Notes under the pieces: generated by a model
Told to the model about the DNA's origin: nothing
The model's database searches: none
The model's input: only the letters and a program-made list of their open reading frames with translations
Part shown: positions 7,711-24,398 of the stretch, in pieces
Position numbering within the stretch: position 1 is the first letter of the stretch
Layout: each line of letters opens with the position of its first letter
Program-made: the position numbers and the translations under genes
NCBI GenBank assembly: GCA_964010765.1
Contig: CAXGMD010000042.1
Span: 1 to 28,959, forward strand
Origin: an uncultured bacterium
GTDB lineage: Bacteria > SAR324 > NAC60-12
Reading direction: 5' to 3'
DNA length: 28,959 nt

Positions 7711-8460
7711 ATGAAAACTAAAGAAATGAAAAAAGGTGGATACGAATATATCCCAGGGGTCATGCAGTATTCTGGTGGCGTATCATCCTTGCCAGGCTTC
7801 CAAATTGTTCGTGTGAGATTTATGCAACCTGTTCCGATGGAGGTTGGCTTCCAGAAGATTGCGACTCATCTTGAGCAAACTGGCAGACCCAGAAATGCAT
7901 TTTGCGCCTGTGAACTACGATCGCCTGGACAGTTTACCCAGGCTGGTTTTGAAGAATTTAATCGTAATTATGCGAATACCCTCAGGGATTGGCAGATTAT
8001 GGTAGGGAACGACAATCCTGTCGCTCGTTCCAATGTCTGTCCAGCCGTCAATGCTCCGGATTCACCATCCTTTCACGCTTTTTGTTACACAGCGGAAGCC
8101 GAAGCCAATGAACAGACATTTGTCATCGCTGGCTCTGGAGAAGCCCCCGAGGGTAAAGGAAACTATGCGGATGTTGCTATCAGTTATGGGGACACCAGCG
8201 AGAGTGGAATCCGCTCAAAAGCAGAATTTGTTCTTGGAGAGATGGAACGCAGAATGTCTTTCTTCCAGAGCGATTGGACCTCCACAACTGCTGTTCAGTT
8301 ATACACCGTTTATGATGCACATCATGTCCTTGTCAAAGAGATGAGTGAACGGAAAGTCCTTGAGCACGGTATCACTTGGCACAACTGCCGACCCCCTGTG
8401 ATTGGCTTGGATTTTGAGATGGATTGCCGTCGGGTTTTTAAAGAAAACGTTCTTCCATAA
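7711..8460 (+). CDS. CnbZ-like protein (2-amino-5-chloromuconate deaminase family, RidA-like fold)
   Basis: Motifs QYSGGV, FCACELRSP..F...GF..FN..Y, NPVARSNVCP, FVIAGSGE, RPPV.GLDFEMDCR, recalled from CnbZ homologues; GAGGT RBS. Confidence 0.72.
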   Translation: MKTKEMKKGGYEYIPGVMQYSGGVSSLPGFQIVRVRFMQPVPMEVGFQKIATHLEQTGRPRNAFCACELRSPGQFTQAGFEEFNRNYANTLRDWQIMVGNDNPVARSNVCPAVNAPDSPSFHAFCYTAEAEANEQTFVIAGSGEAPEGKGNYADVAISYGDTSESGIRSKAEFVLGEMERRMSFFQSDWTSTTAVQLYTVYDAHHVLVKEMSERKVLEHGITWHNCRPPVIGLDFEMDCRRVFKENVLP

Positions 8461-8618: not shown

Positions 8619-9980
8619 ATGAATTTATTTAAAAATAAGGGTTTCAATAGGTTTTTCCAGCCGAGTTTTCCTTTTGAGCCAAAGAGATTCCCATTCTTCT
8701 ATGGCTGGTGGATCCTAGTAGTTGCAACCTTTGGAATGCTTGCGAGTATTCCTGGTCAAACAATTGGAGTTGGAGTATTCACGGAGCATTTGCTTAATGT
8801 GTCGAATTTGAGCCGCCTCGATCTGAGCATTGCTTACATGCTTGGTACTGTTGGGAGTAGCTTACTTATTCCATACGGAGGAAAATTATTGGATCTTTTG
8901 GGATCTAGGATCATGATCATCTTTGCCGGATTGGGGTTGGCATTTGCTCTCTTTCTTCTAAAAAATACGGAGGGGTTGTTAGCTTTTCTGAACCAGTTAT
9001 CCTGGCTTTCCCCACTTGTAGTTAGTTTTATCATTCTATCGTTGATCTTCTTGCTCTTGCGTCAGTTTGGACAGGGACTGATGACCATGGTTAGTCGCTT
9101 TGCCTTGTCAAAGTGGTTTGACCGCAGACGTGGGTTAGTGACAGGAATCAACGGTATTTTTGTCTCCTTTGGTTTCTCTTCAGCACCCCTTTTTTTGAAC
9201 ACACTGATTGTAGAGCAGGGTTACCTCGGTAGTATGGTGATCCTTGCAATCATTTGTGGTTTAAGTACCGCTTTCTTAGGTTGGTTGTTTTTCAGAGATC
9301 AGCCTGAAGACTGTGGATTGGAAATGGACGGCTCGCCCCCTCAAAAGTTGGGGGGTATTGATTCCAATCTAGGTTCACCCCAAAACACTACTGCGAAAGA
9401 CCTCCCACTTGAAGAGGTTCGAAAGAGTTTCACCTTTTGGATTTTTACTATGGGGATGGCGTCTTCCTCACTCATCATCACAGGGTTCACCTTTCACATT
9501 GCTTCCATTGGAGAAATGGCGGGCCTGGACCGATCTGCCATCTATTCGATCTTCCTGCCGATTTCAATCATCAGTGTGATCACAAATTTCACTTCTGGTT
9601 GGTTGAGTGATCGCATTCCTCTGAAATATCTGCTGATGGTACTTGTGTTGTCACTCGGCCTAGGGAGTTTCGGAATGTTATATCTTCACGAAACGATTGG
9701 AAGGGTTTTGGTAATTATTGGCTATGGCATTCAGGGAGGAGTATGGGGGTGTCTTTCTGTGGTCACCTGGCCAAGATTTTATGGTCGGAAACACCTTGGC
9801 GCCATCTCAGGCCTCTTCATGGGCGTTGTCATTTTCGCAAGTGCTATCGGTCCAGCTTTTTATGGAATTTCTCAACAAGTAACTGGAAGTTACGATACTT
9901 CAGCATGGGTTGCTGTGTTTATGAACCTAGTCATTTTTGTTGGGGCATTCAAGGCTCACAAAGCTATATCATTCGAATAA
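8619..9980 (+). CDS. Major facilitator superfamily transporter
   Basis: About 12 hydrophobic segments; FFYGWWI, GKLLDLLGSR, KWFDRRRG, GWLSDRIP, YGRKHLGAISG. Confidence 0.92.
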   Translation: MNLFKNKGFNRFFQPSFPFEPKRFPFFYGWWILVVATFGMLASIPGQTIGVGVFTEHLLNVSNLSRLDLSIAYMLGTVGSSLLIPYGGKLLDLLGSRIMIIFAGLGLAFALFLLKNTEGLLAFLNQLSWLSPLVVSFIILSLIFLLLRQFGQGLMTMVSRFALSKWFDRRRGLVTGINGIFVSFGFSSAPLFLNTLIVEQGYLGSMVILAIICGLSTAFLGWLFFRDQPEDCGLEMDGSPPQKLGGIDSNLGSPQNTTAKDLPLEEVRKSFTFWIFTMGMASSSLIITGFTFHIASIGEMAGLDRSAIYSIFLPISIISVITNFTSGWLSDRIPLKYLLMVLVLSLGLGSFGMLYLHETIGRVLVIIGYGIQGGVWGCLSVVTWPRFYGRKHLGAISGLFMGVVIFASAIGPAFYGISQQVTGSYDTSAWVAVFMNLVIFVGAFKAHKAISFE

Positions 9981-10143
9981 TTTATTAAATCAATGCAATG
10001 TTTACAATCCTTGTTTAAGCAGAAAAATTGGTGCTTAGAGAAATTTGATCTAGCTGTGATAGCAACAAATAATAGAAATGAAAGTAAGTAACTTAGTTAT
10101 ACGTATTATTAGAAACTGAAAATCTGAATTCCTTGGTCAAAAT

Positions 10144-11853
10144 TTAGAATTCTTGCTGTGCTACCCAATGATTAGGTTCTACCTCCAGCAGTGGTCCCCT
10201 ATTGAAAGATCGTTCCAGATTTGTATACTTCAGTTTTTGTCTTTTTGTTGGGTCGGGGATGGGCACAGAGTTTATGAGAGATTTCGTGTAACCATTTAAT
10301 GGGTTCTGTAGGACCTGTGACGTGGAGCCTTTTTCAAGTATTCTACCTTCACACAATACAGCAACAGAGTCAGATACCTGCTGAACTACAGCTAAATCGT
10401 GACTTATGAATAAAAAAGAAATATTTTGCTCATCTTTCAATTTTAAGAGTAATTCAAGAATCTGGGCTTGCACAGTCACATCAAGTGCTGAAGTGGGTTC
10501 ATCCGCCACAATAATTTTGGGTTCGGTAGATATTGCTCGTGCTATTGCAATGCGTTGCCTCTGACCTCCTGAAAATTCGTGTGGATATCTCTTTGCCGAA
10601 TCAGGATCTATCCCAACGGCTGTTAGGAGCTTGCGCACTTTTTCTTGGATCTCAGTTGCTCTGTACTTATTCTGAATTATTAATGGTTCCGAAATGCTAT
10701 AACCAATAGTACGCTTGGGATCAAGTGAGCTGTATGGGTCTTGAAAAATAATTTGAATGGTGGACCGAAATCTTTTAAGTTCTGTAGATTTATTACTGTA
10801 AAAATTTAATCCATCAAACCTAATTGTTCCCTTGTCTGCGTTTGTTAGTTTAAGTAAAATTCTTCCAAGTGTAGATTTTCCAGACCCACTCTCGCCAACC
10901 AATGAAACCACTTCACCATGTCCTATTTGTAAACTTATATTTTCGAGGGCATTAACAGAAATTTTCTTTTTCGAAAAAAAAGTATTTCTCAAGAAAGATT
11001 TAGATAAGTTTTCTATCGAAATAAGGTTGGATTTTGGCAAATTTTCTTTAAATTTAGAATTAGAAGTTAGTCGTGGTACTGAAGCTAGTAGTTGTTTAGT
11101 GTAATCTTCATTAGATCCTACAAAAATTTCTTCTACCTTCCCATCCTCAATTTTTTTCCCATCTTTCATCACAAGAACTCTATCAGCTGTTTGAGCTACT
11201 ACACCCATATCATGGGTGATGAGAATCATTGACATTTTTTTTTCTTGGACGAGTGCAGAAAGTAAATCAAGGATTTGAGCTTGAATAGTAACGTCAAGTG
11301 CAGTGGTAGGTTCATCAGCAATGAGGATATTTGGTTCCATCAACATCATCATTGCAATCAAAATTCTCTGTCTCATTCCACCAGAAAATTCATGTGGAAA
11401 TTGCAACATTCTCTCTTTTGAATGTGGAATACCTACACGATTCAACATCTCTAATGCCATCTCATAAGCAATTTTTGAATCTACCTTTCTACTAATAATC
11501 ATTGACTCAGTCAATTGTTCACCAATAGATAAAACAGGATTTAAAGCTGTCATAGGTTCTTGAAAAATTAGTCCAATTTCATGACCCCGGACACTTAACA
11601 TTTCTTTTTCATCAGTCTGAATCAAGTTTTTTTCATAATATCTAATCTCTCCAGATACAGAAAAGTTTTTTGGTAATAGACCCAAAATAGATTTTGCTGT
11701 AATACTTTTACCTGACCCTGATTCCCCTACAATTGATAAAATTTCACTGGGTAACAGTTCAAATGAAAGGTTATCTAATAGAGTTACTTTCTTTGATTCA
11801 TTCGAGGTGGTAATTACCAGATCTTTAACAGTTAATATTGGAGAAACTTTCAT
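10144..11853 (-). CDS. Peptide/nickel-type ABC transporter ATP-binding protein with two fused ATPase domains
   Basis: Two GESGSGKS Walker A motifs, two PHEFSGG signatures, two ADEPT Walker B motifs. Start refined to 11853, overlapping the upstream stop (TGATG). Confidence 0.95.
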   Translation of the reverse strand: MKVSPILTVKDLVITTSNESKKVTLLDNLSFELLPSEILSIVGESGSGKSITAKSILGLLPKNFSVSGEIRYYEKNLIQTDEKEMLSVRGHEIGLIFQEPMTALNPVLSIGEQLTESMIISRKVDSKIAYEMALEMLNRVGIPHSKERMLQFPHEFSGGMRQRILIAMMMLMEPNILIADEPTTALDVTIQAQILDLLSALVQEKKMSMILITHDMGVVAQTADRVLVMKDGKKIEDGKVEEIFVGSNEDYTKQLLASVPRLTSNSKFKENLPKSNLISIENLSKSFLRNTFFSKKKISVNALENISLQIGHGEVVSLVGESGSGKSTLGRILLKLTNADKGTIRFDGLNFYSNKSTELKRFRSTIQIIFQDPYSSLDPKRTIGYSISEPLIIQNKYRATEIQEKVRKLLTAVGIDPDSAKRYPHEFSGGQRQRIAIARAISTEPKIIVADEPTSALDVTVQAQILELLLKLKDEQNISFLFISHDLAVVQQVSDSVAVLCEGRILEKGSTSQVLQNPLNGYTKSLINSVPIPDPTKRQKLKYTNLERSFNRGPLLEVEPNHWVAQQEF

Positions 11854-12695
11854 CAATTTTTCTCTGTTGGGTCTAAAGCACTCCTCAATCCATCTCCCAA
11901 TAGATTGAAACCCAGTACAGTTAAAGCTATGGCAACCCCAGGAATGGTCATTAACCATGGAGCTCTGTTAATATAATCTCTTGAACCTGCTAGCATGTAA
12001 CCCCATTCAGGAAGTGGTGGTTGTGCTCCCAATCCTAGAAAGCTCAATCCAGCAGCTGCAAGGATTGCCGTTGAAACTCCAAGAGTTGAAACAACGATCA
12101 TTGTTGGCAAAACATTGGGTAAGAGGTGATATACTATCAGTCTAAAATGTCCTGCACCACAGGCAATACATGCTTCAAAGTATGGCTTTGAAGATTCGAC
12201 TAAGGCGGCTGAATAGCATATTCTTGCATAGTATGGTATGCCAGCGATCCCTACCGCAATTACAGCATTTTCGAGACTTGGGCCCAATACTGCTACGCAT
12301 GAAAGTGCAATTAGTGTCTCTGTAAATGAAAACAGCACATCCGTGCCTCGCATAAGAATTTGTTCGAGAATTCCTTTCCTGTAAGCAGCAATTAATCCTA
12401 TGAACATGCCGGTACTCAAAGAAATACCAACTGCGGTTGCTCCAATCATTAGGGTAAGGCGGCTTCCATGTAGAATTCGTGAAAGCATATCTCTACCGAA
12501 TTCATCAGTGCCAAGAACATAATTACTGCTTGGCTTTGAAAATCTTTTACCTGCGCCCATTTTAGTTGGGGAATATGGAGATATAACTTCAGCCATCAAT
12601 GCTGAGAAAATAAGGATTGCAACGATTGAAATGCCAATTAATCCGCTAGGTTTAGTTATAAATCTTTTCAAAAAAAACTTTACACCTTCCATCAT
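11853..12695 (-). CDS. Peptide/nickel ABC permease (DppC-like)
   Basis: LGTDEFGRD, HLLPN, LSFLGLG, PEWG, NLLGDGLR. Confidence 0.95.
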   Translation of the reverse strand: MMEGVKFFLKRFITKPSGLIGISIVAILIFSALMAEVISPYSPTKMGAGKRFSKPSSNYVLGTDEFGRDMLSRILHGSRLTLMIGATAVGISLSTGMFIGLIAAYRKGILEQILMRGTDVLFSFTETLIALSCVAVLGPSLENAVIAVGIAGIPYYARICYSAALVESSKPYFEACIACGAGHFRLIVYHLLPNVLPTMIVVSTLGVSTAILAAAGLSFLGLGAQPPLPEWGYMLAGSRDYINRAPWLMTIPGVAIALTVLGFNLLGDGLRSALDPTEKN

Positions 12696-12737
12696 CTGAC
12701 TCTCAAGAAGAATGATTTAGTAAGTATTCTATTTATG

Positions 12738-13661
12738 TCAACTTCTCCTTATTCTTGGATCAATGAAAGCATAAATAACGTCTAGAGAAATTGTAACAAA
12801 GACTACAATTACTGAAAAAGTTAGTATAAATCCCTGGATTATTGGGTAATCTCTTTGGAATATTGCTTCCACTGCCATTCTACCAACTCCATTCCAGGAA
12901 AATATATTCTCTACTACTATCGCTCCTCCCATCATAAAAGCGAATTGCATTCCCATCATTGTCACAAGGGGTATCAATCCCGCCCTCAAAACATGTTTTC
13001 TCAAAACATATTTTTTTGGGAGTCCTTTAGCGAGGGCTGTAATAACAAAATCCTGTTGTAAAATCTCTATCATAGAAGTTCTTGTCAATCTGGCAAATAT
13101 AGCAGCATTAGAAATCCCTAAGGTCAAAGCAGGTAAAACCAAATTTAATAATCCACTTCCACTGACTGGCAACCAACCTAAGTCCACTGCAAAAATAAAT
13201 AATAAAATTAGTCCTAACCAAAAGTGAGGCATTGAAATACCAGAAATAGCTAATATCATAATTAACGTATCGGAAATTGTTCCTTTGTTGTAGGCTGCCA
13301 AAAAACCTAGTGGAACACCCAACAAAATAGCAATCATCATTGCACTAGTTGCCAGAAGTATTGTATTAGGTAGTCTTTGAAAAATTACTTCTAACACTGG
13401 TTGGCCACCTCTAATCGTTTTTCCTAGATCCCCTCTAGATAATTGATCTATATAATTGAGATACTGGATATAAATTGGTTGATCTAATCCTAAATTGATA
13501 CGTACTTGTTCAATCTGTTCAGGTGTACTTCCTTGACTTTGTGCAAACATGATTTGGACTGGATCACCGGGCACAATATGTATCAGAAGAGTCACCAGGA
13601 TTGTGGTGACAAAAATAGTAAAAAAAGCTAATAGAAATTTCGTAAATAAAAATCTAATCAT
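12738..13661 (-). CDS. Peptide/nickel ABC permease (DppB-like)
   Basis: PGDP, LGLDQP, GDLG, ARLTR, AKGL, VENIFSWNGVG, RDYP, DPRIR. Confidence 0.95.
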   Translation of the reverse strand: MIRFLFTKFLLAFFTIFVTTILVTLLIHIVPGDPVQIMFAQSQGSTPEQIEQVRINLGLDQPIYIQYLNYIDQLSRGDLGKTIRGGQPVLEVIFQRLPNTILLATSAMMIAILLGVPLGFLAAYNKGTISDTLIMILAISGISMPHFWLGLILLFIFAVDLGWLPVSGSGLLNLVLPALTLGISNAAIFARLTRTSMIEILQQDFVITALAKGLPKKYVLRKHVLRAGLIPLVTMMGMQFAFMMGGAIVVENIFSWNGVGRMAVEAIFQRDYPIIQGFILTFSVIVVFVTISLDVIYAFIDPRIRRS

Positions 13662-13871
13662 CAGATATAATAGAGTAAATAAAAAAAATATATATGTGGA
13701 AATCCATGGAACTTTGGATGAGTCGTTTAATTAAATTTGTGGCGGAAATTTCAGAAACAGCGCCGGAAGAAATCGGTGGGGAAATTTTGAGTGAATGAAA
13801 TAATCAGATCGATTGGATTTGTCAATTAGGTATTGTAATTGTTTACTCCATTTGAAATTTTACAGAGCGCT

Positions 13872-13904
13872 GTGGACTATTATCATCTTTAATAAATAGT
13901 CCAC
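13872..13904 (-). terminator. Intercistronic inverted repeat downstream of the binding-protein gene
   Basis: GTGGACTATT-N13-AATAGTCCAC: perfect 10-bp inverted repeat about 50 nt after the SBP stop codon. Confidence 0.55.
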
Positions 13905-13953
13905 CTTTTTCAATTAATAAATTTTATTTTAATAATTTACTTGAATTAAAATT

Positions 13954-15507
13954 TCAATTTTCAATTTTCACGTCACTGAAAATGGGATATACGAAGGGTG
14001 CAACCATGAAACCTTTCACTTCTGGTCTTACTGCAAATACCCACTCCCATCCTGGTGTGTAGAGAGGAATGTGTACACCATTTTCCAAGAGATGTTTAAA
14101 TACTTCCTGTACAACAGCTTTACGATCTGCTGGATCACTCAAAACTCGGGTTTCCTCAAGCAGTTTGTCCAGTTCAGGAGTTGTGTATCCTCTATATGCT
14201 CCGGGTGTATGCCAGAGTGCATATAGAATATCTGGATCGTACCATGACCATGTCATCATATCCATGCTTCCTTTGGTGCCGGACTTGTTCTCATTTTCTT
14301 GACGAACCCTTGCATTCATTGATCCGATGTCCATAATCTCAATTTCGGCCTTGATATTCACTTCCGCAAGCTGTGCCTGAAATATTTCAGCGAGCTTTTG
14401 CCTGTTACCACCTGTCCAAACAATCATTGAAGTCTCGAGAGGATTGTCTTCTCCAAAACCCATTTCTGCCAACAAGGCTTTTGCCTTTTCTGGGTCGTAA
14501 TCAGGACGATACTTTTTGCAAAACTCTTGATCATTACCGAAAACACCCCTTGATACGGGACAAGCTTCAGGAATTGAAAGATCACCGTAGATTAGATCAA
14601 TAGCTGTTGCAGGATCTGTTGCATGGCCTACTGCCAATCGAGCACGCTTATCGTTGAAAGGCGGTCGGTGGACTGCAAATTCCCAAAAGACATTTTGTCC
14701 AGTATTTTCTGCAACGATTATTTCCAAATCACCTGAATCTTTAATTGCTGGTACATCATCAAAGGGAGGCTCTGCGACATGTACTTCACCCGTTTTTAAC
14801 GCAGCTAGACGAGCTTGTGGTTCGGGAACTACAGTAATGATGAGACCATCCATGTGTGGGGGACCAGAATTTTTGGCTAGTTTACCAAAGTTACGATATG
14901 ATGGATTTTTTTCGAGAACGATGCGATCTCCCTTAGCCCACGAATTGAATTTCCATGGTCCTGATCCTATGGCCACAGAGGTGCCGAAACCCGATTCATT
15001 TTTGTTAGAATCGCAAATAATTGATGAGAAGCTATCTGCAAGGAAAGAAATTAGAGCAACAAATGGTTTCTCTAATGTAAATTGAATCTTTACTGGGCTA
15101 ATAACTTTAACTTCTGTGATGGGCCCCCAACTTCCTTTGGTCAAACTGGGATTTTCACTATTGAACGCTTTCTCAATCGTGTATTTAATGTCGTTGGCGT
15201 CAAGTGCTGTACCATCATGACATTTGATACCGTCGTTTAATTCAAAAGTGTACACCCTACCGTCACTGCTTGAACTCCAACTTTTAGCGACATGTGGAAC
15301 AATGTTGCCATTTTTGTCAGTGGCCAACATTGTGTCGTAAATCAGACTCCAAACTTGTAGTGATAGTGTGCTTGTGGCTTTGTGGGGATCAAGCGAATCA
15401 ATGTCCCCATACCTTGCCCAAACAATTTCATCAGCATTAATATTTGAGCAGATTATAAAGCTGCTTAGCAGCAAAATTAAACATTTAAAAGCATATTTTC
15501 CAAGCAT
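13954..15507 (-). CDS. Family-5 ABC substrate-binding protein (DppA/OppA-like)
   Basis: Signal peptide; SLDPH, DGRVYTFEL..GIKCHDG, IGSGPW, PPFNDKRAR, YDPEKAKALLAE; AAGGA RBS. Confidence 0.94.
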   Translation of the reverse strand: MLGKYAFKCLILLLSSFIICSNINADEIVWARYGDIDSLDPHKATSTLSLQVWSLIYDTMLATDKNGNIVPHVAKSWSSSSDGRVYTFELNDGIKCHDGTALDANDIKYTIEKAFNSENPSLTKGSWGPITEVKVISPVKIQFTLEKPFVALISFLADSFSSIICDSNKNESGFGTSVAIGSGPWKFNSWAKGDRIVLEKNPSYRNFGKLAKNSGPPHMDGLIITVVPEPQARLAALKTGEVHVAEPPFDDVPAIKDSGDLEIIVAENTGQNVFWEFAVHRPPFNDKRARLAVGHATDPATAIDLIYGDLSIPEACPVSRGVFGNDQEFCKKYRPDYDPEKAKALLAEMGFGEDNPLETSMIVWTGGNRQKLAEIFQAQLAEVNIKAEIEIMDIGSMNARVRQENENKSGTKGSMDMMTWSWYDPDILYALWHTPGAYRGYTTPELDKLLEETRVLSDPADRKAVVQEVFKHLLENGVHIPLYTPGWEWVFAVRPEVKGFMVAPFVYPIFSDVKIEN

Positions 15508-15841
15508 TTTGGATTCCTTTTTAAAGAATTAGAGGCATTTGGTGAGATATGACCTTCCATCCCGAATTGGAGTTAACAGATTAGAAAATTTTTCGACGCA
15601 TTGAATATTCTGCAAATTGGAACCCCGGTATTAGTAATTTATAATTAACTGTTTAAATTATTGATTTCATGTAATTTTAAATTTTTCAGATGATTGAAAA
15701 CAAGAAGGTTAAAGTGATACCCAATTAATCACTTAGCTAAAATTTAATCAAAATTTATGGACTGCTCAAAAATTAGAACAAAATAAATCATAAATATTTA
15801 AATATATAGTCGTCTAAATTGACAAACTTCTGAATTATTTA

Positions 15842-16144
15842 TTTGAGACAGAGGTCACCGCAAAGGGCGATGATAAACAAATTTTTGGGAAAGAACGCGA
15901 ATATGAATTATCGCCGACGGCGTTGGCGCAGTTGCGTCGTTGAGACGAATGAAGTATTCACCGAAATTTGGTGAATGTTATTCGCTCTGGCTATCAGTGG
16001 ACTTAATCTTTGGAAAGGTCTTCGGTTTTGGCTTGGGAAGGAAACTAACAAAAAAGGTAAGGTCTTTAGCAGCAGATCAAGCACATGCCGACGATGGGCT
16101 ATGGCACGGACATGCTGAAGGCCCTCGAGAACTTGATTCCATAA
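15842..16144 (+). pseudogene. Possible decayed 3' gene remnant, family not identified
   Basis: One frame reads FETEVTAKGDDKQIFGKEREYELSPTALAQLRR*DE*SIHRNLVNVIRSGYQWT*SLERSSVLAWEGN*QKR*GL*QQIKHMPTMGYGTDMLKALENLIP*. It has six internal stops, and the last codons are mostly G/C-ending. Confidence 0.35.
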
Positions 16145-16324
16145 ACAAAGCATCAAGTAATAAAGACCCTTGCCACATTATGCGAATCTCTGAACTGCCG
16201 ACTCAGACATTATTTAGCGAGGCTCCATCTTAAAACATCGTGCTAAAGCAAATCAAAAGCAATAGTGGAAGTTTCTTTGCTCATCCATAAGCTAAAAAAC
16301 CCTTAAGCTCTAACGCGAAGTTGA

Positions 16325-17014
16325 CTACCTATCAGACGCCGAAATCTGTAAGGCTTTTGTTACTTTTTCCTGCATTGTAGGAAGCCATTGGCTACCCTCT
16401 TCGCTCGTGATGGCCAACCAAAATAAGAAGGCACAAGCCGCAATTACGGATAATCCAATGCCAAATCCACCTTTTTCTTTTTCCTTCTCGCGGTGAATGG
16501 GTTCGTTCAAGCCTTGCTGAATCACTTCCATTTCCTGAGGCGTGACATGATCGGCAGGGGATGGTGTTGGAATATCAGCATTGACCCTACTTGGCGCACT
16601 ATTGTGGAGGAGTAATCCCTCCACTTCCTTTCGAAGTGTCTGAATATCTGCGGAGAGGGTACCAATCATTTGCTCGGTACGCTGAGAGATCTGCTTCTCC
16701 AACTCCAGAGTCTTTAACAATTCCGACTTTTCCAGGGTCAACACTTCCACCTGCTTTTTCAGAGATGATAACTCTTCTTGCAAAGCAATGATTTGTTGAG
16801 CTGACTCTTGCTCTGCTTTGCCTTTTCGGATTTTTGGAGTGGAAGTCGAATCTTCTTGGAAGGAAATTGCTTGCTGGATTTTTTGGAATTGCTCTTCGTC
16901 CAGAAGTCTTCGTCGACCATCCTGATGAGGATTGATCTCCAATTCCTTCATCAGACGATACAGCTTGGACTTCCCAATCTGTAGATCTTGGGTGAGTTGG
17001 GTCAGTGTAATCAT
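16325..17014 (-). CDS. Uncharacterised protein: N-terminal MerR/excisionase-like HTH, coiled coil, Pro-rich linker, C-terminal transmembrane helix
   Basis: MITLTQLTQDLQIGKSKLYRLMKEL..DGRRRLL (HTH plus wing); heptads IIALQEELSSLKKQVEVL..; TM GFGIGLSVIAACAFLFWLAI. GGAG RBS precedes ATG 17014 (ORF-track start 17038). Confidence 0.75.
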   Translation of the reverse strand: MITLTQLTQDLQIGKSKLYRLMKELEINPHQDGRRRLLDEEQFQKIQQAISFQEDSTSTPKIRKGKAEQESAQQIIALQEELSSLKKQVEVLTLEKSELLKTLELEKQISQRTEQMIGTLSADIQTLRKEVEGLLLHNSAPSRVNADIPTPSPADHVTPQEMEVIQQGLNEPIHREKEKEKGGFGIGLSVIAACAFLFWLAITSEEGSQWLPTMQEKVTKALQISASDR

Positions 17015-17184
17015 CTTTAACTCCAATGTTTGATGCATACCTGCAGTATTTTATTCACTATCCATTAGTGATGGTACTGACGTGACGCTATGATAATCAT
17101 TTCATCTTTTTTTCCCATTAATTTTTTTATGGGAAAAGAATTATCGGTCCCTCCTTTGACGATGAGTTGGAAAAATTAGATTAA

Positions 17185-17913
17185 CTACCAATTTTTTCGA
17201 ATGCTGCTAACGATCGAGTTCAGCCGAGAGTCGCTGATCCCGAGTCCCTGTTCTGCAAGATGACTAGACAATTCCTGCTTCACATTTGAAGGTAGCCGAG
17301 AGGGCATTCCCCAAGGGAAAGTTTTTCTCAATAAATTCTCAATAATAGCTTGTGCACCATTCGTTTGTTGGGACTCCAGTTGTTCATTTACGTGAAATCC
17401 GTTTAATTTTTCTCCCGAATACAATTGACCACTGGCCAATTCATCAGCACTTACCTCTGACATTGAGGTCGGCACTAGATTATTCGAAATATTTTTTTTG
17501 TAATTTTCAATTTCTTGTCGGAGTTTGAGATTTTCACTCTGAAAGTTCATCATCAGTTTTTGCCACTGACTGACTTGTTCGATTAACTCCATATTTTGGG
17601 TCCGCTCTGCTTCTACCTGAGATTTCAGAAAGCCAATCTGATCGCGTAATTCACTGATCAATAAATCCTGTTGTCCAAGATCAATTGCCGATTCCGCGTC
17701 TAGAAGATTTTCCTCTTTTTCATGTTTAGTTTCAGTGGAAGAAATTACTTGGGTTTGTTTTTTCAACAAACCTTTTAGATGTTGATAGTCTTCTTTTTGG
17801 ATCAGCTGCTCACCGCCATTGGAAACCAGCTTGATTCGATAGTCCCTGACGATTCTCTCAAATTCATCGCTTGAAATCCCTAATTTTTTTGCGGCTTCAA
17901 TCGCGGTTTTCAT
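17185..17913 (-). CDS. Uncharacterised protein: N-terminal HTH, coiled coil, small C-terminal helical domain (RacA / pSK1 Par-like architecture)
   Basis: MKTAIEAAKKLGISSDEFERIVRDYRI (HTH); LISELRDQIGFLKSQVEAERTQNMELIEQVSQWQKLMMNFQSENLKLRQEIENYKK (coiled coil). Confidence 0.75.
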   Translation of the reverse strand: MKTAIEAAKKLGISSDEFERIVRDYRIKLVSNGGEQLIQKEDYQHLKGLLKKQTQVISSTETKHEKEENLLDAESAIDLGQQDLLISELRDQIGFLKSQVEAERTQNMELIEQVSQWQKLMMNFQSENLKLRQEIENYKKNISNNLVPTSMSEVSADELASGQLYSGEKLNGFHVNEQLESQQTNGAQAIIENLLRKTFPWGMPSRLPSNVKQELSSHLAEQGLGISDSRLNSIVSSIRKNW

Positions 17914-18172
17914 TTGTTGTTCAGAGTGATTTTGCTGCGGAAATCGTCAGTGCAATGTTTTTGAGATAAAGAAAGACAGTTTGTGGAAAGGAGAAGATTT
18001 TTACAGTTGATTTTTAAAAAATTTAGACTTGCAGTTTATTTGCCGATGAAGGGCGGGTTTACTTTTCTGAAGAAGAATACTTTCAAAAGTTAAATGCTGA
18101 TGGCATGTCAATTTTGAATTACTAAACTCTCAGTCAGGTCTATTTATGAACGATTCTTCTCAAAGGAATTTA

Positions 18173-19111
18173 ATGAAACGCAAAATTATCATTGATACGG
18201 ATCCTGGACAGGATGACGCGCTCGCTATCTTATTGGCGTTGGCAAGCCCCGAAGAATTAAATGTTTTGGGAATTGTGACGGTTGCTGGAAACGTCCCCCT
18301 ACCATTGACAACGCGTAACGCCAGGGCACTTGTTGAGCTTGCGAATCGGCCAGAGGTTCCGGTTTTTGCTGGGTGTCCACGTCCCCTGATGCGGAATTTA
18401 GTCACAGCAGAGCATGTTCATGGCAAGACGGGTTTGGATGGATGGGACATGCCGGAACCCAGTGTCGCATTGCAGTGGGAACACGGAGTTGACTGGCTGA
18501 TTGAAACGCTACGACAAGCTGAGGATGATTCCATCACCCTTTGTACATTAGCTCCGCTGACCAATGTGGGGATGGCTTTTGCCAAAGCGCCCGATATTCT
18601 CCCGAAAATCAGAGAGATTGTCACGATGGGAGGAGGTTATTTTGTTGGCGGTAATGTCACCCCTGCAGCAGAATTCAATGTCTATGTAGATCCACATGCT
18701 GCCCAGACAGTCTTCTCCTGTGGTCGTCCACTGACTGTGATGCCCCTGGATGTCACTCACCAAGCATTGATGCCGAAAACCTGGATTCAGAGTCTCAGAG
18801 AACTTGGAACTCCGGTTGGAGATGCTACTTCAGGGATGCTGAGTTTTTTTGAAAGATATGATGTCAAAAAATATGGATCAACAGGAGGGCCACTTCATGA
18901 TCCGACAGTGATTGCCTATCTACTCAAGCCAGAACTGTTTGAGGGGAAATTGGTTAATTTAACCGTGGAAACGCAATCAGATTTGACAATGGGAATGACG
19001 GTTCTTGACTGGTGGGGAGTAACGAAACGCAAACCAAATGCGACTGTCATGAACAAAATCGATTCAGAGGCCTTCTTTGCTTTGCTGCTGGAGAGACTTT
19101 CAAAATTGTAG
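18173..19111 (+). CDS. Nucleoside hydrolase (inosine/uridine-preferring, IUNH family)
   Basis: DTDPGQDD Ca-binding motif, VAGN, HGKTGL, PLTN, MGG, AEFN..VDP, LDVT, PLHDP. Start refined to 18173 (AAGGA RBS). Confidence 0.95.
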   Translation: MKRKIIIDTDPGQDDALAILLALASPEELNVLGIVTVAGNVPLPLTTRNARALVELANRPEVPVFAGCPRPLMRNLVTAEHVHGKTGLDGWDMPEPSVALQWEHGVDWLIETLRQAEDDSITLCTLAPLTNVGMAFAKAPDILPKIREIVTMGGGYFVGGNVTPAAEFNVYVDPHAAQTVFSCGRPLTVMPLDVTHQALMPKTWIQSLRELGTPVGDATSGMLSFFERYDVKKYGSTGGPLHDPTVIAYLLKPELFEGKLVNLTVETQSDLTMGMTVLDWWGVTKRKPNATVMNKIDSEAFFALLLERLSKL

Positions 19112-19838: not shown

Positions 19839-19890
19839 CGTTGCGTTGCCATCTTCGGGCAACTTTTCCTTACTCTCTTTGGAGAAGATC

Positions 19891-21456
19891 ATGCTGAAGA
19901 AACAGATACGAGTGATGTTGCTGCTCAGTTTCCTTTTGCTCAGCTTCGGACTGACCATCCAAGCTGCGACCCCAAAAGATGTGCTGGTGGTGGCTCAGAT
20001 TGCGGAGCCGAAGTCAATGGATCCTGCGACAGTGACAGCGGTCAATGATTTCCGAATCCTGATGAATGTTTATGATGGGCTGGTCCGTTACCGAAGCGGA
20101 ACGCTTGAGGTTGAACCCGGCCTGGCGGAGTCCTGGACAATCAGTGATGATGGAAAAGTCTACACATTCTCACTGCGCCAAGGAATTAAATTTCACGATG
20201 GCAGTCCCTTCAACGCAGAAGCGGTCAAGTTTAACTTTGATCGTATGTTGGTCAAAGATCACCCTTACGCTGAGACCGGGCCTTTTCCCCTATCGTTCTT
20301 CTTCTCAGCAATCAAGGAAACAACAGTTGTAGACGAATACACGGTGCGTTTCCGTATGGACGATCCTTATGCTCCATTACTTTCGAATCTGGCCTACCCC
20401 ACCGGGCTGATCATTTCCCCGGAAGCTGTCAAAAAACACGGCAAGGATGTTGGGCGGAATCCAGCTGGAACTGGACCTTACCAATTTAGAGAATGGAAGA
20501 GTAATCAGCACGTCATTCTGGATCGGAATGGCAGCTACTGGGATGGACAGGCCGGATTGAAGTCTGTGGTGTTCCGACCAATTACTGATGCAAACACCCG
20601 GGTCGCAGAGATGCTTTCAGGTGGTATTGATATGATGGTCGAAGTTCCCCCCGACAACGTCGCGACTTTCTCTTCAAACACTAGCTATGCCCTGCATGAG
20701 CAGGCAGGACCACATCTTTGGTTTCTGATTCTGAATTTGAAAGAGGGACCACTTCAAGACAAGCGAGTTCGACAAGCTTTGAACTATGCCATCAACAAGC
20801 AGGCACTAGTTGAGAATGTTCTCCAAAATACTGCCACGGTGGCAAGCGGCCCAACCCCGGCTGCGTTCTCCTGGGCTTACAATGATGCGCTGCAACCCTA
20901 TCCCTACGATCCAGCTAAAGCCCGCGAGTTGGTGAAAGCTGCTGGTGCAGAGGGTGCTACATTGACCTTCTACGTAACTGAGGGGGGCTCTGGAATGTTG
21001 GACCCTGTCCCCATGGGTACTGCTATTCAGGCGGACCTCAAGGCGATTGGTTTGAACGTCAAGATTGAAACCTACGAGTGGAATACTTTCTTGGGCAAGG
21101 TCAATCCAGGTTTGGAAGGCAAGGCGGACATGGCTGAGATGGCCTGGATGACCAATGATCCCGACACTCTTCCGTTCTTAGCCTTGCGAACTTCCGCTTG
21201 GCCTGATCAAGGTGGATTCAACTCGGGTTACTATTCCAATCCTCAAGTGGACGAGCTACTCGAGCAGGCCCGTGTCAGCACAAGCCAAACTGTTCGTGCT
21301 GCACTCTACAAGGAGATGCAGCGTATCGTGCACGATGATGCCCCATGGGTCTTCGTGGCGAACTGGAAGCAAAACGCTGTGACTGGGAGCAATGTGCAAA
21401 ACTTCCGCTTGGAGCCATCCTTCCTCTTGCTTCTGCACAAAGTTAGCAAGAACTGA
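19891..21456 (+). CDS. Family-5 ABC substrate-binding protein (DppA-like)
   Basis: Signal peptide; SMDPA, PGLAESW..SDDGKVYTF.LR.GIKFHDG, GTGPY, DKRVRQALNYAIN, YDPAKA. GGAGAA RBS precedes ATG 19891. Confidence 0.95.
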   Translation: MLKKQIRVMLLLSFLLLSFGLTIQAATPKDVLVVAQIAEPKSMDPATVTAVNDFRILMNVYDGLVRYRSGTLEVEPGLAESWTISDDGKVYTFSLRQGIKFHDGSPFNAEAVKFNFDRMLVKDHPYAETGPFPLSFFFSAIKETTVVDEYTVRFRMDDPYAPLLSNLAYPTGLIISPEAVKKHGKDVGRNPAGTGPYQFREWKSNQHVILDRNGSYWDGQAGLKSVVFRPITDANTRVAEMLSGGIDMMVEVPPDNVATFSSNTSYALHEQAGPHLWFLILNLKEGPLQDKRVRQALNYAINKQALVENVLQNTATVASGPTPAAFSWAYNDALQPYPYDPAKARELVKAAGAEGATLTFYVTEGGSGMLDPVPMGTAIQADLKAIGLNVKIETYEWNTFLGKVNPGLEGKADMAEMAWMTNDPDTLPFLALRTSAWPDQGGFNSGYYSNPQVDELLEQARVSTSQTVRAALYKEMQRIVHDDAPWVFVANWKQNAVTGSNVQNFRLEPSFLLLLHKVSKN

Positions 21457-21523: not shown

Positions 21524-22480
21524 ATGTTGCGCTACACAATTCACCGACTGCTGTTGACCATCCCAGTACTGGTTGGGATTTCAGTGGTCGTGTTTCTGAT
21601 CATGGCCCTAATTCCCGGAGATCCTGCAACCGCAATTCTTGGGGCCTTTGCCACTCCAGAAAATGCTACCAAACTCAGAGCTGAATTGGGCTTGGATCGG
21701 CCATTGATTGAACAATACTTCACTTGGGCGGGCAATCTTCTCTCGGGTGATTTTGGACGAAGCTATGCTTTGAATCGTCCGGTATTGGATGAATTATTGG
21801 AACGTCTGGGGCCTACCCTCCTTTTGGCTGGGTCGGCGATGTGTGTCTGTGTTTTACTGGGGCTAATCGCTGGATTACTAGCTGCGGTCAAACAATACAC
21901 ATGGGTTGATCAGGGACTGACCCTTTTTACATTGATTGGGATTTCTGCACCATCTTTCTGGTTAGGCCTAATGGCAGTTTCCCTGTTCACCGTTCAGTTG
22001 GGTTGGTTGCCCGCAAGCGGAATGTACACGCCCTATGGAGATGAGAGTCTGGGTGATTTACTGGTCCACCTCTTAATGCCGGCGGTCACACTTGGATTAG
22101 TGGCGTCGAGCGTAATTGCAAGACTGACTCGCACCAGCATGTTGGAACAGCTTCGCCAGGATTACGTTCGTACTGCGCGGGCAAAAGGAGAGCGCGAAAC
22201 CGCAGTAGTGATTAGACATGCTTTTCGGAATGCACTCGTTGGCCTGATTCCAGTTCTGGGTCTGCAGGCTGGATTCGTTTTAGGGGGTGCTGTCTACATA
22301 GAAACTGTATTCCAGTGGCCAGGCATCGGCAGGATGCTGGTCAATGCAATCTCCACACGTGACATCCTCCTTGTTCAAGGAGGGGTAATGATGGTGGCCA
22401 CAATCTACGTATTCTTCAACTTATTGGCTGACCTGATTCAGCATGCTTTAGATCCGCGAATTCAGCATAGCCATGGTTGA
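21524..22480 (+). CDS. Peptide/nickel ABC permease (DppB-like)
   Basis: IPGDPA, LGLDRP, GDFGRS, DYVRTARAKG, ETVFQWPGIG, DPRI. The start may be TTG 21521. Confidence 0.95.
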   Translation: MLRYTIHRLLLTIPVLVGISVVVFLIMALIPGDPATAILGAFATPENATKLRAELGLDRPLIEQYFTWAGNLLSGDFGRSYALNRPVLDELLERLGPTLLLAGSAMCVCVLLGLIAGLLAAVKQYTWVDQGLTLFTLIGISAPSFWLGLMAVSLFTVQLGWLPASGMYTPYGDESLGDLLVHLLMPAVTLGLVASSVIARLTRTSMLEQLRQDYVRTARAKGERETAVVIRHAFRNALVGLIPVLGLQAGFVLGGAVYIETVFQWPGIGRMLVNAISTRDILLVQGGVMMVATIYVFFNLLADLIQHALDPRIQHSHG

Positions 22481-24398
22481 AAAAAACACTCCAGCGCTGG
22501 AATTCTGGCAGAGATTGAATCGTAATCGATTGAGCACAGTCGGACTACTTATGCTAGGGCTCATCTTCGTGCTTTGTCTAATAACTCCCTGGCTCCCCCT
22601 GCCTGATCCAGATGCTACCGATCTGGCAAATCGTCTCAAAACTCCCTTAACTTCAAATCATTTGCTTGGAACCGATGAACTCGGTAGAGATCTTCTTTCA
22701 AGGCTGCTTTGGGGTACTCGAGTGAGCTTGGTGGTTGGGTTTGTGGCGACGCTTGCAGCAGCATTGGTTGGCAGTCTAATTGGTCTGGTCTCTGGATATT
22801 TTCAGGGCTGGATTGATAGCGGACTCATGAGAGGGGTGGATACTTTGATGGCATTCCCCTACATGTTGCTAGCGCTGGCGATTGTAGCCGCCTTTGGCCC
22901 CGGACTCCTCAATGCCCTTTTTGCTATAGCGATCGTAAATGTCCCCTTCTTCGCAAGAACGGTTCGCGGAGCTACGATCTCGTTGGTACAGCGAGAATTT
23001 GTCCTGGCAGCTAGACTTGGTGGGGCAAGCCACTTTGGTGTACTGTGGCGTGAACTACTGCCCAACATCCTACCTGTGATTGTCGTCACAATTTCAACCA
23101 CGGCTGGATGGATGATTCTGGAAACTGCAGGATTGAGTTTCTTGGGCTTGGGTGCTCAGCCTCCGACTGCAGATCTTGGGTCCATGTTGGGTGAAGGAAG
23201 GAAGCTTCTCTTTACAGCGCCCCATGTTTCTACGCTTCCTGGGTTAGTAATCCTGATCTTGGTTATCTCCTTGAACCTGCTAGGAGATGGGGTCCGGGAT
23301 GTTTTGGATCCACGGTTGCGGGGAGGAGCTTTGCGCAGTCCACAACCAAGGACAGAAGTCCTCAGTGCTGAGCTGGGCTCAGCTCAGGTTAGATCTACGG
23401 AAAAACTGGTTATCCGTAACCTCACGACAGAATTATTTCAACAAGGACAAGCCAAGCCCCTGGTGAGAAATGTCGATTTTGAATTGAGGCCTGGAGAGTG
23501 TTTGGGGCTGGTTGGTGAGTCGGGTTGTGGGAAGTCTGTGACCGCATTATCTCTTGCAGCCCTGGCTGCGTCCCCTCCTCTACGAATTGCTTCAGGAACT
23601 GTAGAGCTGGACGGAGAGGACATTCTGCGCCTTCCTCTCAGACTGCTTCAGGATATCAGAGGCAAACGAGTCTCTTATATCTTTCAGGATCCTCTCACAA
23701 CTCTAAATCCAGTGTTGACGATTGGTGAACAACTCATTCAGGTGATAAGAAGACATCAATCACTTTCTTCAAGAGCGAGTTATACGGAGGCGTTGCACCT
23801 GTTATCCAGAGTAAGAATTCCTTCTCCTGAGACTAGGATGAAGGCTTATCCTCATCAGCTTTCTGGAGGAATGCGTCAACGAGTTTGCATTGCAATTGCC
23901 TTGGCTAATCGTCCCGAAGTTTTGATTGCAGATGAGCCAACCACGGCTTTGGATGTAACAATTCAGGCTGAAATCCTGTCATTACTCAATGATTTGAGAA
24001 AGACCACTCTTAAAGATAGCCAAACAGGAAAAAAAACAGGTTTGTCAGTCCTTTTCATCACTCATGATCTGGGGATAGTCTCGACAATATGTGAAAAAGT
24101 TGCGGTGATGTACGCAGGTCAAATTGTTGAGTTTGGGGAAACAAAATCAATTTTAGAATCGCCTCAACATCCATATACACAAGCTTTGTTGGCATGTACA
24201 CCGCGGCTTGGAGCAAAGCACAAGGTGCTGGGGGGCATACCTGGAACACCCCCACCTCCAGGCTCGTATCCTTCTGGATGTGGGTTTCTGGATAGATGCA
24301 AAGTTGCCTCTGTTAAATGCCAGGATCCTGTCCATTTGATGCAGCTAAGCTCAAACAGGCAAGTTCGTTGTGTTCTCAAGCAGGGTGCAAATGCCTGA
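22473..24398 (+). CDS. Fused DppC-like permease + DppD-like ATPase
   Basis: N-terminal half has LGTDELGRD, LSFLGLG and NLLGDGVRDVLDPR. C-terminal half has GESGCGKS, LSGGMRQ, ADEPT, HPYT and a Cys-rich tail. One uninterrupted 641-aa frame. Confidence 0.93.
   Translation: MVEKNTPALEFWQRLNRNRLSTVGLLMLGLIFVLCLITPWLPLPDPDATDLANRLKTPLTSNHLLGTDELGRDLLSRLLWGTRVSLVVGFVATLAAALVGSLIGLVSGYFQGWIDSGLMRGVDTLMAFPYMLLALAIVAAFGPGLLNALFAIAIVNVPFFARTVRGATISLVQREFVLAARLGGASHFGVLWRELLPNILPVIVVTISTTAGWMILETAGLSFLGLGAQPPTADLGSMLGEGRKLLFTAPHVSTLPGLVILILVISLNLLGDGVRDVLDPRLRGGALRSPQPRTEVLSAELGSAQVRSTEKLVIRNLTTELFQQGQAKPLVRNVDFELRPGECLGLVGESGCGKSVTALSLAALAASPPLRIASGTVELDGEDILRLPLRLLQDIRGKRVSYIFQDPLTTLNPVLTIGEQLIQVIRRHQSLSSRASYTEALHLLSRVRIPSPETRMKAYPHQLSGGMRQRVCIAIALANRPEVLIADEPTTALDVTIQAEILSLLNDLRKTTLKDSQTGKKTGLSVLFITHDLGIVSTICEKVAVMYAGQIVEFGETKSILESPQHPYTQALLACTPRLGAKHKVLGGIPGTPPPPGSYPSGCGFLDRCKVASVKCQDPVHLMQLSSNRQVRCVLKQGANA

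Follow-up and report, generated by a model that had tools for sequence, protein, structure and literature searches.

Can two small, adjacent genes of an uncultured bacterium, one of which ends in a transmembrane (TM) helix, encode a tether between DNA and the cell membrane? The question is raised by a locus on contig CAXGMD010000042.1 of assembly GCA_964010765.1 (an uncultured bacterium of the SAR324 lineage), the 28,959 nucleotides of which were analysed here and are referred to as the window. The two genes, called g1 and g2 in the following, are neighbouring co-oriented open reading frames (ORFs) on the minus strand, separated by a spacer of 170 nt. Each product is predicted to consist of a winged helix–turn–helix (HTH) at its N-terminus, a disordered linker and a long coiled coil, and the two then end differently, g1 in a three-helix domain and g2 in a TM helix. 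In predicted fold and in domain order the pair is built like the group formed by RacA, RocS, RicO and Par. Below, the evidence for this architecture is presented, and a joint role of the two proteins in tethering DNA, which we propose tentatively, is weighed against roles as transcription regulators, as leftovers of a mobile element and as structural scaffolds.

Gene models and overall architecture

Both g1 and g2 are real genes. A first-pass annotation, which had described two adjacent co-oriented genes of similar size (about 230–240 residues), gave no strand; the ORFs found are both on the minus strand and encode 242 residues (g1) and 229 or, in a longer reading, 237 residues (g2). The longer reading of g2 uses an upstream start at position 17038 (16325..17038, 237 residues), and the MITLTQ start of the first-pass annotation is Met9 of this ORF, at position 17014. 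Because a Shine–Dalgarno-like GGAG lies six bases 5' of Met9 and 12 of the 23 clusters of g2 homologues have a length of 228 or 229 residues, the 229-residue product is the likelier one, and the residue numbering of g2 starts at Met9. The positions of the features described below are collected in Table 1.

The N-terminal HTHs had been placed at the extreme N-termini, and this is where AlphaFold2 predicts them. The models have in common a strand–helix–helix–hairpin–helix module over residues 1–56, predicted with a local distance difference test score (pLDDT) of 81–87. In g1 the elements are a short strand, helices at residues 4–11 and 15–24, strands at residues 29–32 and 35–38 and a helix at residues 40–56; the order of the elements is the same in g2. 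The mean pLDDT of the whole models is 74 for g1 and 72 for g2. Each module is followed by a stretch with a pLDDT below 50 (residues 55–74 of g1 and 58–63 of g2), which also comprises the least conserved columns of both alignments, and then by one helix of approximately 75 residues. The heptads of this helix keep a single register over residues 83–145 of g1 (63 residues), with Leu, Ile, Val or Met making up a fraction of 0.61 of the a and d positions, and over residues 72–139 of g2 (68 residues), where the fraction is 0.74. These values were reached in six of 2000 and in one of 2000 shuffles, respectively, in keeping with the linker and long heptad coiled coil that had been read from the letters of the DNA.

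Fold of the N-terminal domains

Foldseek searches of the Protein Data Bank (PDB) with the two models returned as top matches the DNA-binding domains of the very proteins to which the pair had been likened in the first-pass annotation, namely RacA and pSK1 Par. For g2 the top match is the pSK1 Par domain 8csh_A (E = 0.014, probability 1.00, target-normalized template-modelling score TMt of 0.90, root-mean-square deviation (r.m.s.d.) of 0.9 Å for 51 columns), with RacA (5i44) next. For g1 the top match is the RacA domain 5i44 (E = 0.022, probability 1.00, TMt of 0.71), and g1 aligns with Par 8csh_A with a TMt of 0.88 and an r.m.s.d. of 1.1 Å for 52 columns. The sequence identity in the RacA fold matches is 11–22%. 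A comparison of the g2 family profile with PDB sequences gave a match to the Par chain 8csh_D that is colinear over residues 1–132, with a borderline E value of 0.021. Lower in both Foldseek lists are BldC, phage and transposon excisionases and the MerR regulators HiNmlR, SoxR, CadR, MtaN, CueR and GlnR.

Comparison with family models points to the same broad class. The excisionase-domain model TIGR01764 aligns with g2 (E = 8.4e-4, 19.7 bits) and g1 (E = 0.014, 15.8 bits) below its cut-off of 28.8 bits, and the Pfam model HTH_17 (PF12728) aligns with g2 (E = 0.01, 16.5 bits) below its cut-off of 27 bits. The HTH of the PADLOC model mad1 (60 residues) matches g2 with an E value of 4.8e-6, and phrog_66, annotated as 'excisionase and transcriptional regulator', with an E value of 0.017; g1 has a weak match to HTH_28 (E = 0.25). 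The NCBIfam RacA model gave no match to the pair at E ≤ 10. A feature search of the ESM Atlas with g2 gave DUF536/RocS-like clusters at 0.85, which we take as a lead only. One distant relative of the pair, P0152, passes the HTH_17 cut-off (29.2 bits), and by transitivity the N-terminal domains of g1 and g2 therefore likely belong to the HTH_17/excisionase superfamily.

Paralogy of the two genes and the wider family

That g1 and g2 are diverged paralogues, as the first-pass annotation had supposed, is borne out by comparison of their sequences: they are 27% identical over 164 residues (BLASTP, E = 9e-6), and their profiles align with an E value of 2.6e-4 and a probability of 42% (hhalign). The 212-residue protein P0147 bridges the pair, with 39% identity to g1 (E = 2e-25) and 27% identity to g2 (E = 5e-10). 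The family is very small. Among 1.84 billion representative proteins, the g1 family profile found 12 at E ≤ 0.001, several of them fragments, and a search with a mixed alignment gave 188 matches, of which the best 120 are all close homologues.

Four distant relatives that the g1 profile picked up (P0147, P0149, P0152 and P0153) are informative about the C-terminal ends. The full-length proteins P0147 and P0149 (249 residues) have an HTH, a linker, a coiled coil and a TM helix near the C-terminus, whereas P0152 (163 residues) and P0153 (234 residues) have an HTH and a coiled coil followed by short C-terminal tails that read as amphipathic; a membrane element thus appears to recur in the family. 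The C-terminus of P0153 (GIWGRLRRVFLGGE) looks like a membrane-targeting helix of the MinD type. In the HTH_17 comparison P0149 and P0153 gave E values of 1.5e-4 and 6.4e-5, respectively. A tree built from the HTH and the coiled coil (14 rows) leaves eight of its 11 inner branches unresolved and puts g2, P0152 and P0153 on long branches. Because most of the inner branches are open, the tree gives no order for the duplication or for the loss or gain of the TM helix. As a separate observation, P0153 has two tandem copies of the motif DELVNELRDRV-FLE-E-E-RR, similar to the start of the g1 coiled coil (SELRDQIGFLKSQVEAER).

The C-terminal ends

The C-termini of the two proteins had been described as different, with a TM helix in g2 and a soluble end in g1. 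The TM helix stood, and the end of g1 proved to be more than merely soluble: it is a predicted three-helix domain that is near-invariant from residue 186 in 16 sequences and is separated from the coiled coil by a disordered stretch. No match to this domain was found in Pfam, among PDB sequences or in the Atlas. The largest Kyte–Doolittle average over 19 residues is 2.35 in g2 and 0.28 in g1. In g2 a stretch rich in Lys and Arg precedes the TM helix and an acidic stretch follows it, a distribution of charge that fits a tail anchor with the N-terminus inside and the C-terminus outside. The juxtamembrane linker of g2 contains a short predicted helix; across 14 sequences its DHVTPQEMEVIQ block hardly changes, in contrast to the variable flanks of the block, and this helix may serve as a docking motif. 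Neither g1 nor g2 has a match to DUF536 (PF04394) in Pfam at E ≤ 10, and g2 ends in the TM helix and a tail of 26 residues rather than in an amphipathic helix.

Two further features of the g1 end were considered and dropped. The stretch GLGISDSRLNSIV of the C-terminal domain resembles the N-terminal KLGISSDEFERIV, but a second HTH is not claimed: residues 1–60 and 170–242 gave no BLASTP alignment at E ≤ 100, the C-terminal domain matched no HTH family in Pfam (best match E = 0.17) and it matched no PDB sequence at E ≤ 10. The similarity of LAEQGLGISDSRLNSIV, in residues 212–242 (positions 17188–17280), to the signature KKLGISSDEFERIV of the N-terminal HTH is kept as a lead, a hint of an HTH-like module beyond the coiled coil that the searches did not support. 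An amphipathic helix in the last 12 residues, which have a moderate hydrophobic moment of 0.57 and a mean hydrophobicity of -0.03, is likewise not claimed.

Within g2, conservation is highest in the coiled coil and the TM tail. This would suit a pair of membrane-associated coiled-coil scaffolds for division or morphogenesis in which the winged helix makes protein contacts instead of binding DNA. Coiled-coil matches to the DivIC and YabA models point the same way, although they are weak and all lie far below the cut-off. However, the N-terminal modules are conserved as well as the coiled coils, their nearest structural matches are DNA-bound domains and the 24 ORFs that neighbour the pair include no division or cell-wall genes. 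A scaffold of this kind is therefore, in our judgement, very improbable.

Conservation of the pair

Homologues of g1 number 155 at E ≤ 0.001; the best 120 of these are 86–97% identical to g1 and hold 434 member sequences. The 23 clusters of g2 homologues are 75–96% identical and hold a comparable number, 502 member sequences. The metagenome-assembled genomes (MAGs) from which the homologues come were labelled by their depositors 'Deltaproteobacteria bacterium', 'Pseudomonadota bacterium' or 'bacterium', and the homologues occur on contigs of up to 690 kb.

A genome scan gave three related loci (L001, L002 and L003), and the pair is adjacent in all three, although the contig of L002 stops within g2. 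Purifying selection acts on both genes. The ratio of nonsynonymous to synonymous substitution rates (dN/dS) against the three loci is 0.23–0.36 for g1 and 0.10–0.16 for g2, compared with 0.08 and 0.10 for two neighbouring genes. As a side observation, the synonymous rate (dS) in the same genomes is lower in g1 (0.07–0.19) than in g2 (0.17–0.48) or in the two neighbours (0.32 and 0.73), which may reflect recent recombination or an additional constraint at the level of the DNA or RNA.

A possible DNA-to-membrane tether

Taken together, the likenesses described above suggest, tentatively, that g1 and g2 form a DNA-to-membrane tether that works in the manner of RacA–DivIVA, RocS, RicO, Par and TubY. 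In such a tether g2 would be a tail-anchored inner-membrane protein with its HTH and coiled coil on the cytoplasmic side; it would oligomerize through the coiled coil and then hold bound DNA at the membrane. g1, which would have lost or never had an anchor and carries the conserved three-helix domain instead, would also bind DNA and would join g2 either through the coiled coil or through the juxtamembrane helix of g2. Alternatively, the three-helix domain of g1 might link the complex to another partner. Jointly, the two proteins would tether the nucleoid to the membrane, and in this way they could contribute to chromosome organization or segregation. What would set this tether apart from the known anchors is that its anchor is integral, that it is made of two gene products and that its host carries the label Deltaproteobacteria. 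More doubtful is the specific version in which the pair is a two-component integral-membrane anchor of the RacA/RocS/RicO type in a Gram-negative uncultured lineage, with g2 as the receptor, g1 docking onto it and DNA held without ParAB.

Were the pair to act as a tether, tethers built of a winged HTH and a coiled coil would not be confined to Firmicutes, and the membrane element would be swappable between a TM helix, an amphipathic helix and a partner protein within one family. The compact two-gene system would be open to study in Escherichia coli despite the uncultured host.

Several results weigh against a tether. The alignments given to AlphaFold2 were shallow (31 rows for g1 and 25 for g2, mostly more than 75% identical). 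No Foldseek match in the PDB or in the viral library reaches E ≤ 0.001, the query being a small domain in a long predicted model, and the g1 family profile has no relative among PDB sequences at E ≤ 10. In the Pfam and NCBIfam scans no model reached its cut-off anywhere in g1 or g2, the curated cut-offs of RacA, DUF536, MerR and HTH_17 among them. A search for repeats found no centromere-like direct-repeat array around the two genes. The first-pass annotation had noted that no ParA/ParB, replication or phage genes lie nearby, and indeed none of the 24 neighbouring ORFs encodes ParA, ParB, ParM, TubZ/TubR, a replication protein, an integrase, a transposase, a terminase or a phage protein, nor do these ORFs include a pair of partition NTPase and centromere-binding protein of the ParABS, ParMRC or TubZRC kind; a segregation system would thus stand without segregation genes around it. 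The adjacency of the pair is weak evidence of functional linkage, and synteny says little here because the related loci are close, at about 90–95% DNA identity to the window.

A contact between the two proteins is part of the tether proposed here. The first-pass annotation had suggested that they may hetero-oligomerize through their coiled coils. One complex prediction, made with g1 residues 71–242 and g2 residues 70–192 of the 237-residue form, gave 'weak support' with a score of 0.49, the best of three controls, which were unrelated proteins and not other coiled coils, scoring 0.00. At least 62% of the contacts agree between runs, and the partner pLDDT is at least 63. The mark for the score was met by 116 of 157 solved complexes and by two of 215 mismatched pairs, although own alignments were used and these counts are only rough; scores of 0.60 or less that met the mark came from 18 of the 157 solved complexes and from both of the passing mismatches. 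By the tool's own account, most verdicts of this kind are wrong if the guess was not already likely in advance, and we give the prediction little weight.

The fold itself is also ambiguous as to function, since the same winged HTH is common to excisionases and ordinary MerR regulators, both of which are among the Foldseek matches. HTH proteins are mostly transcription factors. The two proteins could accordingly be, in a reading that the first-pass annotation did not consider, transcription regulators of the MerR superfamily that dimerize through the long helix: g1 would control the divergent nucleoside hydrolase and peptide-uptake genes and sense a ligand with its C-terminal domain, and g2 would be a tethered regulator or an anti-regulator that sequesters g1. 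The arrangement of the locus is compatible with this: g1 and the IU_nuc_hydro gene are transcribed away from each other, and the 232 nt between them, which are conserved, contain a 16-nt inverted repeat. A structural analogue, TubY, is described as a membrane-binding transcription factor (PMC7762940). The proteins themselves fit less well. The MerR and MerR_1 models of Pfam have no match and MerR_2 leaves the sole MerR trace (g2, E = 0.27); whole-chain MerR regulators fit the g1 and g2 models poorly (query-normalized score TMq of about 0.2, r.m.s.d. of 10–23 Å); a disordered linker of 6–20 residues parts the HTH from the long helix, unlike in classical MerR proteins; and g1 has no cysteine, while the only one in g2 lies inside the TM helix. 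A GntR/FCD regulator is moreover already present in the neighbouring operon. We regard regulation as rather unlikely, but as an alternative to be taken seriously; if it were right, the pair would include an unusual membrane-tethered MerR-like regulator, which would be of modest interest.

The inverted repeat in the divergent region (18082–18118) is a candidate operator. Three related loci share a C-to-T change in its 5-nt spacer.

Table 1. Positions in the window of g1, g2, their predicted domains and the adjoining intergenic elements
Feature	Position	Strand	Description
g1	17185..17913	-	242 residues, start MKTAIEAAKKLGIS, stop codon included; winged HTH, linker, coiled coil, three-helix C-terminal domain
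g1 winged HTH (predicted, MerR/excisionase-type)	17746..17913	-	Residues 1–56; AlphaFold2 pLDDT 81–84
g1 long single helix, heptad coiled coil	17479..17703	-	Residues 71–145; AlphaFold2 pLDDT 90–97
g1 three-helix C-terminal domain (predicted)	17188..17382	-	Residues 178–242, no family match; helices 178–198, 209–221 and 228–241; pLDDT 80–87
g2	16325..17014	-	229 residues; winged HTH, linker, coiled coil, conserved short helix, TM helix, short tail; predicted tail-anchored membrane protein
g2 winged HTH (predicted, MerR/excisionase-type)	16847..17014	-	Residues 1–56; AlphaFold2 pLDDT 84–87
g2 long single helix, heptad coiled coil	16598..16825	-	Residues 64–139; AlphaFold2 pLDDT 91–98
g2 short conserved helix in disordered juxtamembrane linker	16508..16540	-	Residues 159–169; AlphaFold2
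g2 TM helix (predicted tail anchor)	16406..16459	-	Residues 186–203; Kyte–Doolittle and AlphaFold2; invariant in 14 sequences
g2 conserved tail after TM helix	16328-16405	-	About 26 residues
g1–g2 spacer	17015..17184	-	170 nt, with an imperfect hairpin/inverted repeat inside
Hairpin TTTTCCCAT ... ATGGGAAAA in spacer	17107-17140		Two 15-nt arms with 87% complementarity and a 4-nt gap
Divergent intergenic region between g1 and the nucleoside hydrolase (IU_nuc_hydro) gene	17914..18145		232 nt; conserved in L001–L003
16-nt inverted repeat in divergent region	18082-18118		Arms 81% complementary, 5 nt apart; conserved in related loci

Genomic context

Families were assigned to 23 of the 24 neighbouring ORFs, which are transport, metabolic, regulator or DUF genes, and one ORF has no family. 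The families include sugar and peptide ABC systems, phosphotriesterase, PfkB kinase, SDR, MFS, nucleoside hydrolase, DUF1028, M42 and M20 peptidases, GntR and DUF898.

The excisionase-like character of the HTH raises the question of whether the pair is a mobile-element leftover that is now fixed in the chromosome, for example a one-protein plasmid partition module of the pSK1 par kind, an excisionase-like recombination directionality factor or a DNA-recognition protein like a small terminase. Besides the TIGR01764 and phrog_66 similarities given above, P0152 matches phrog_66 with an E value of 1.7e-6 and the small terminase phrog_57 with an E value of 4.6e-5. In the viral fold library the pair matched solely HTH proteins of the MerR/excisionase type, phage ones being the best, and the spot just downstream of g2 is variable (positions 9956–16319 of the window as against 546 bp in L001). 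The surroundings are nevertheless those of a chromosome, with the mobile-element and partition-ATPase genes searched for lacking among the neighbouring ORFs, with homologues on long contigs, with synteny between the window and L003 extending for more than 10 kb on the side of g1 and with both genes under purifying selection; searches of 72,556 plasmid and 50,697 phage records with g1 and g2 (tblastn, E ≤ 0.01) were blank. We consider a mobile origin of this kind very improbable.

The spot downstream of g2 is judged to be variable because of the replacement in L001 and of a separate difference in L003, which departs from the window after g2 by another roughly 400 bp. The 6.4 kb segment that is absent in L001 holds a peptide-type ABC transporter operon (10144–15507) and about 0.8 kb of AT-rich noncoding DNA, and the 546 bp found there instead (L001 1792–2337) encode a GFA-family protein (PF04828, E = 2e-26).

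The stem of the hairpin in the g1–g2 spacer is kept in four loci, with a loop length that differs by 2 nt; it is not a canonical terminator, as no run of T follows it. Neither Rfam nor tRNA scans of the whole window found anything, and nor did a permissive search of positions 15400–18200 with Rfam. Promoter-like and terminator-like elements each number five, near the counts in shuffled sequence (means of 6.5, standard deviation 2.7, and 2.4, standard deviation 1.7, respectively).

Four other genes of the window deserve mention. The gene for the solute-binding protein SBP_bac_5 is a single ORF of 536 residues (19846–21456) that is split into 308 and 205 residues in L003 (6461–8071), where a frameshift, a pseudogene or an assembly error could be the cause. 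The ORF of 249 residues at 7711–8460, between CMD-family and MFS genes, matches no Pfam family at E ≤ 0.01 and is kept in L001 (3834–4583). Two ABC fusions are unusual: an ORF of 641 residues (22473–24398) joins an OppC-type permease to an ATPase domain, and one of 604 residues (10144–11958) contains two ABC_tran stretches.

Comparison with known DNA–membrane anchors

The closest published analogues, RocS, RicO and TubY, had not been named in the first-pass annotation. Classical MerR regulators and proteins of the HTH_17/excisionase type share the winged-HTH fold class with g1 and g2. In classical MerR proteins, as outlined in PMC7762940, the HTH is joined directly to the dimerization helix. 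In contrast, g1 and g2 lie below all cut-offs, carry a disordered linker between the HTH and the long helix, lack an effector-binding Cys/His motif and include one TM anchor.

TubY, a regulator and also a component of the segrosome in the type III plasmid partition system of the Bacillus cereus group, has a similar layout: its N-terminal HTH is MerR-like, DNA binding requires its coiled coil, which is parallel and tetrameric, and its C-terminal tail attaches to membranes only once the protein has oligomerized (PMC7762940). It differs in working with TubZ and TubR, neither of which is present among the 24 neighbouring ORFs, and its tail is lysine-rich and amphipathic and not a TM helix.

Staphylococcal pSK1 Par, which partitions its plasmid as a single protein, has a winged HTH at its extreme N-terminus and, after it, a coiled coil; it ranks first among the fold matches of g2 and is the sole member of the group with a borderline colinear sequence match, that of the g2 profile. 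A linker leading into a long coiled coil is found in both Par and RocS (PMC11500499). Par is, however, plasmid-borne in Firmicutes, has centromere repeats 5' of par and ends in DUF536 and an amphipathic C-terminus (PMC11500499), whereas the pair is chromosomal and has neither a repeat array nor plasmid relatives in the searches described above.

RocS, the chromosome segregation regulator of Streptococcus pneumoniae, resembles g2 in having an N-terminal MerR-type winged HTH, a coiled coil (used by RocS for self-association) and a C-terminal membrane element, and it bridges DNA and membrane (PMC11500499). The membrane element of RocS is a peripheral amphipathic helix after DUF536, which binds the membrane only once oligomerized (PMC11500499), while g2 would have an integral TM tail anchor and has no DUF536 match. 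RocS is moreover encoded by a single gene in a Firmicute, whereas g1 and g2 are two paralogues from MAGs whose lineage is labelled Deltaproteobacteria, and the analysis brought out no significant sequence similarity between RocS and the pair. Because the similarity of g2 to the family is borderline, g1 has none and both DUF536 and the amphipathic helix are lacking, we do not file the pair as members of the RocS/Par family.

RicO of Staphylococcus aureus likewise combines a small N-terminal HTH, a coiled coil and a C-terminal membrane element, and anchors origin-proximal DNA to the membrane (10.64898/2026.03.06.710092). Its membrane element is an amphipathic helix and not a TM helix, it is a single gene and it acts at defined ricS sites. 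The search for homologues of RicO, RacA and RocS described in that account covered 500 Firmicute genomes only (10.64898/2026.03.06.710092). The titles and opening lines of abstracts retrieved from the literature describe no transmembrane or proteobacterial anchor built of a winged HTH and a coiled coil.

The division of labour proposed for g1 and g2 has its closest analogue in RacA–DivIVA of Bacillus subtilis. In RacA a disordered region joins the winged HTH to a coiled coil, which contacts the coiled coil of DivIVA, so that a soluble DNA binder is held by a second, membrane-associated protein (PMC4914108). DivIVA, unlike g2, lacks an HTH of its own, and RacA and DivIVA are not paralogues. The anchors compared here (RacA, RocS, RicO, Par and TubY) are, in the accounts cited, all from Firmicutes, and a counterpart labelled Deltaproteobacteria would widen the range of the mechanism, as would a true TM anchor and a duplication that gave one soluble and one anchored paralogue.

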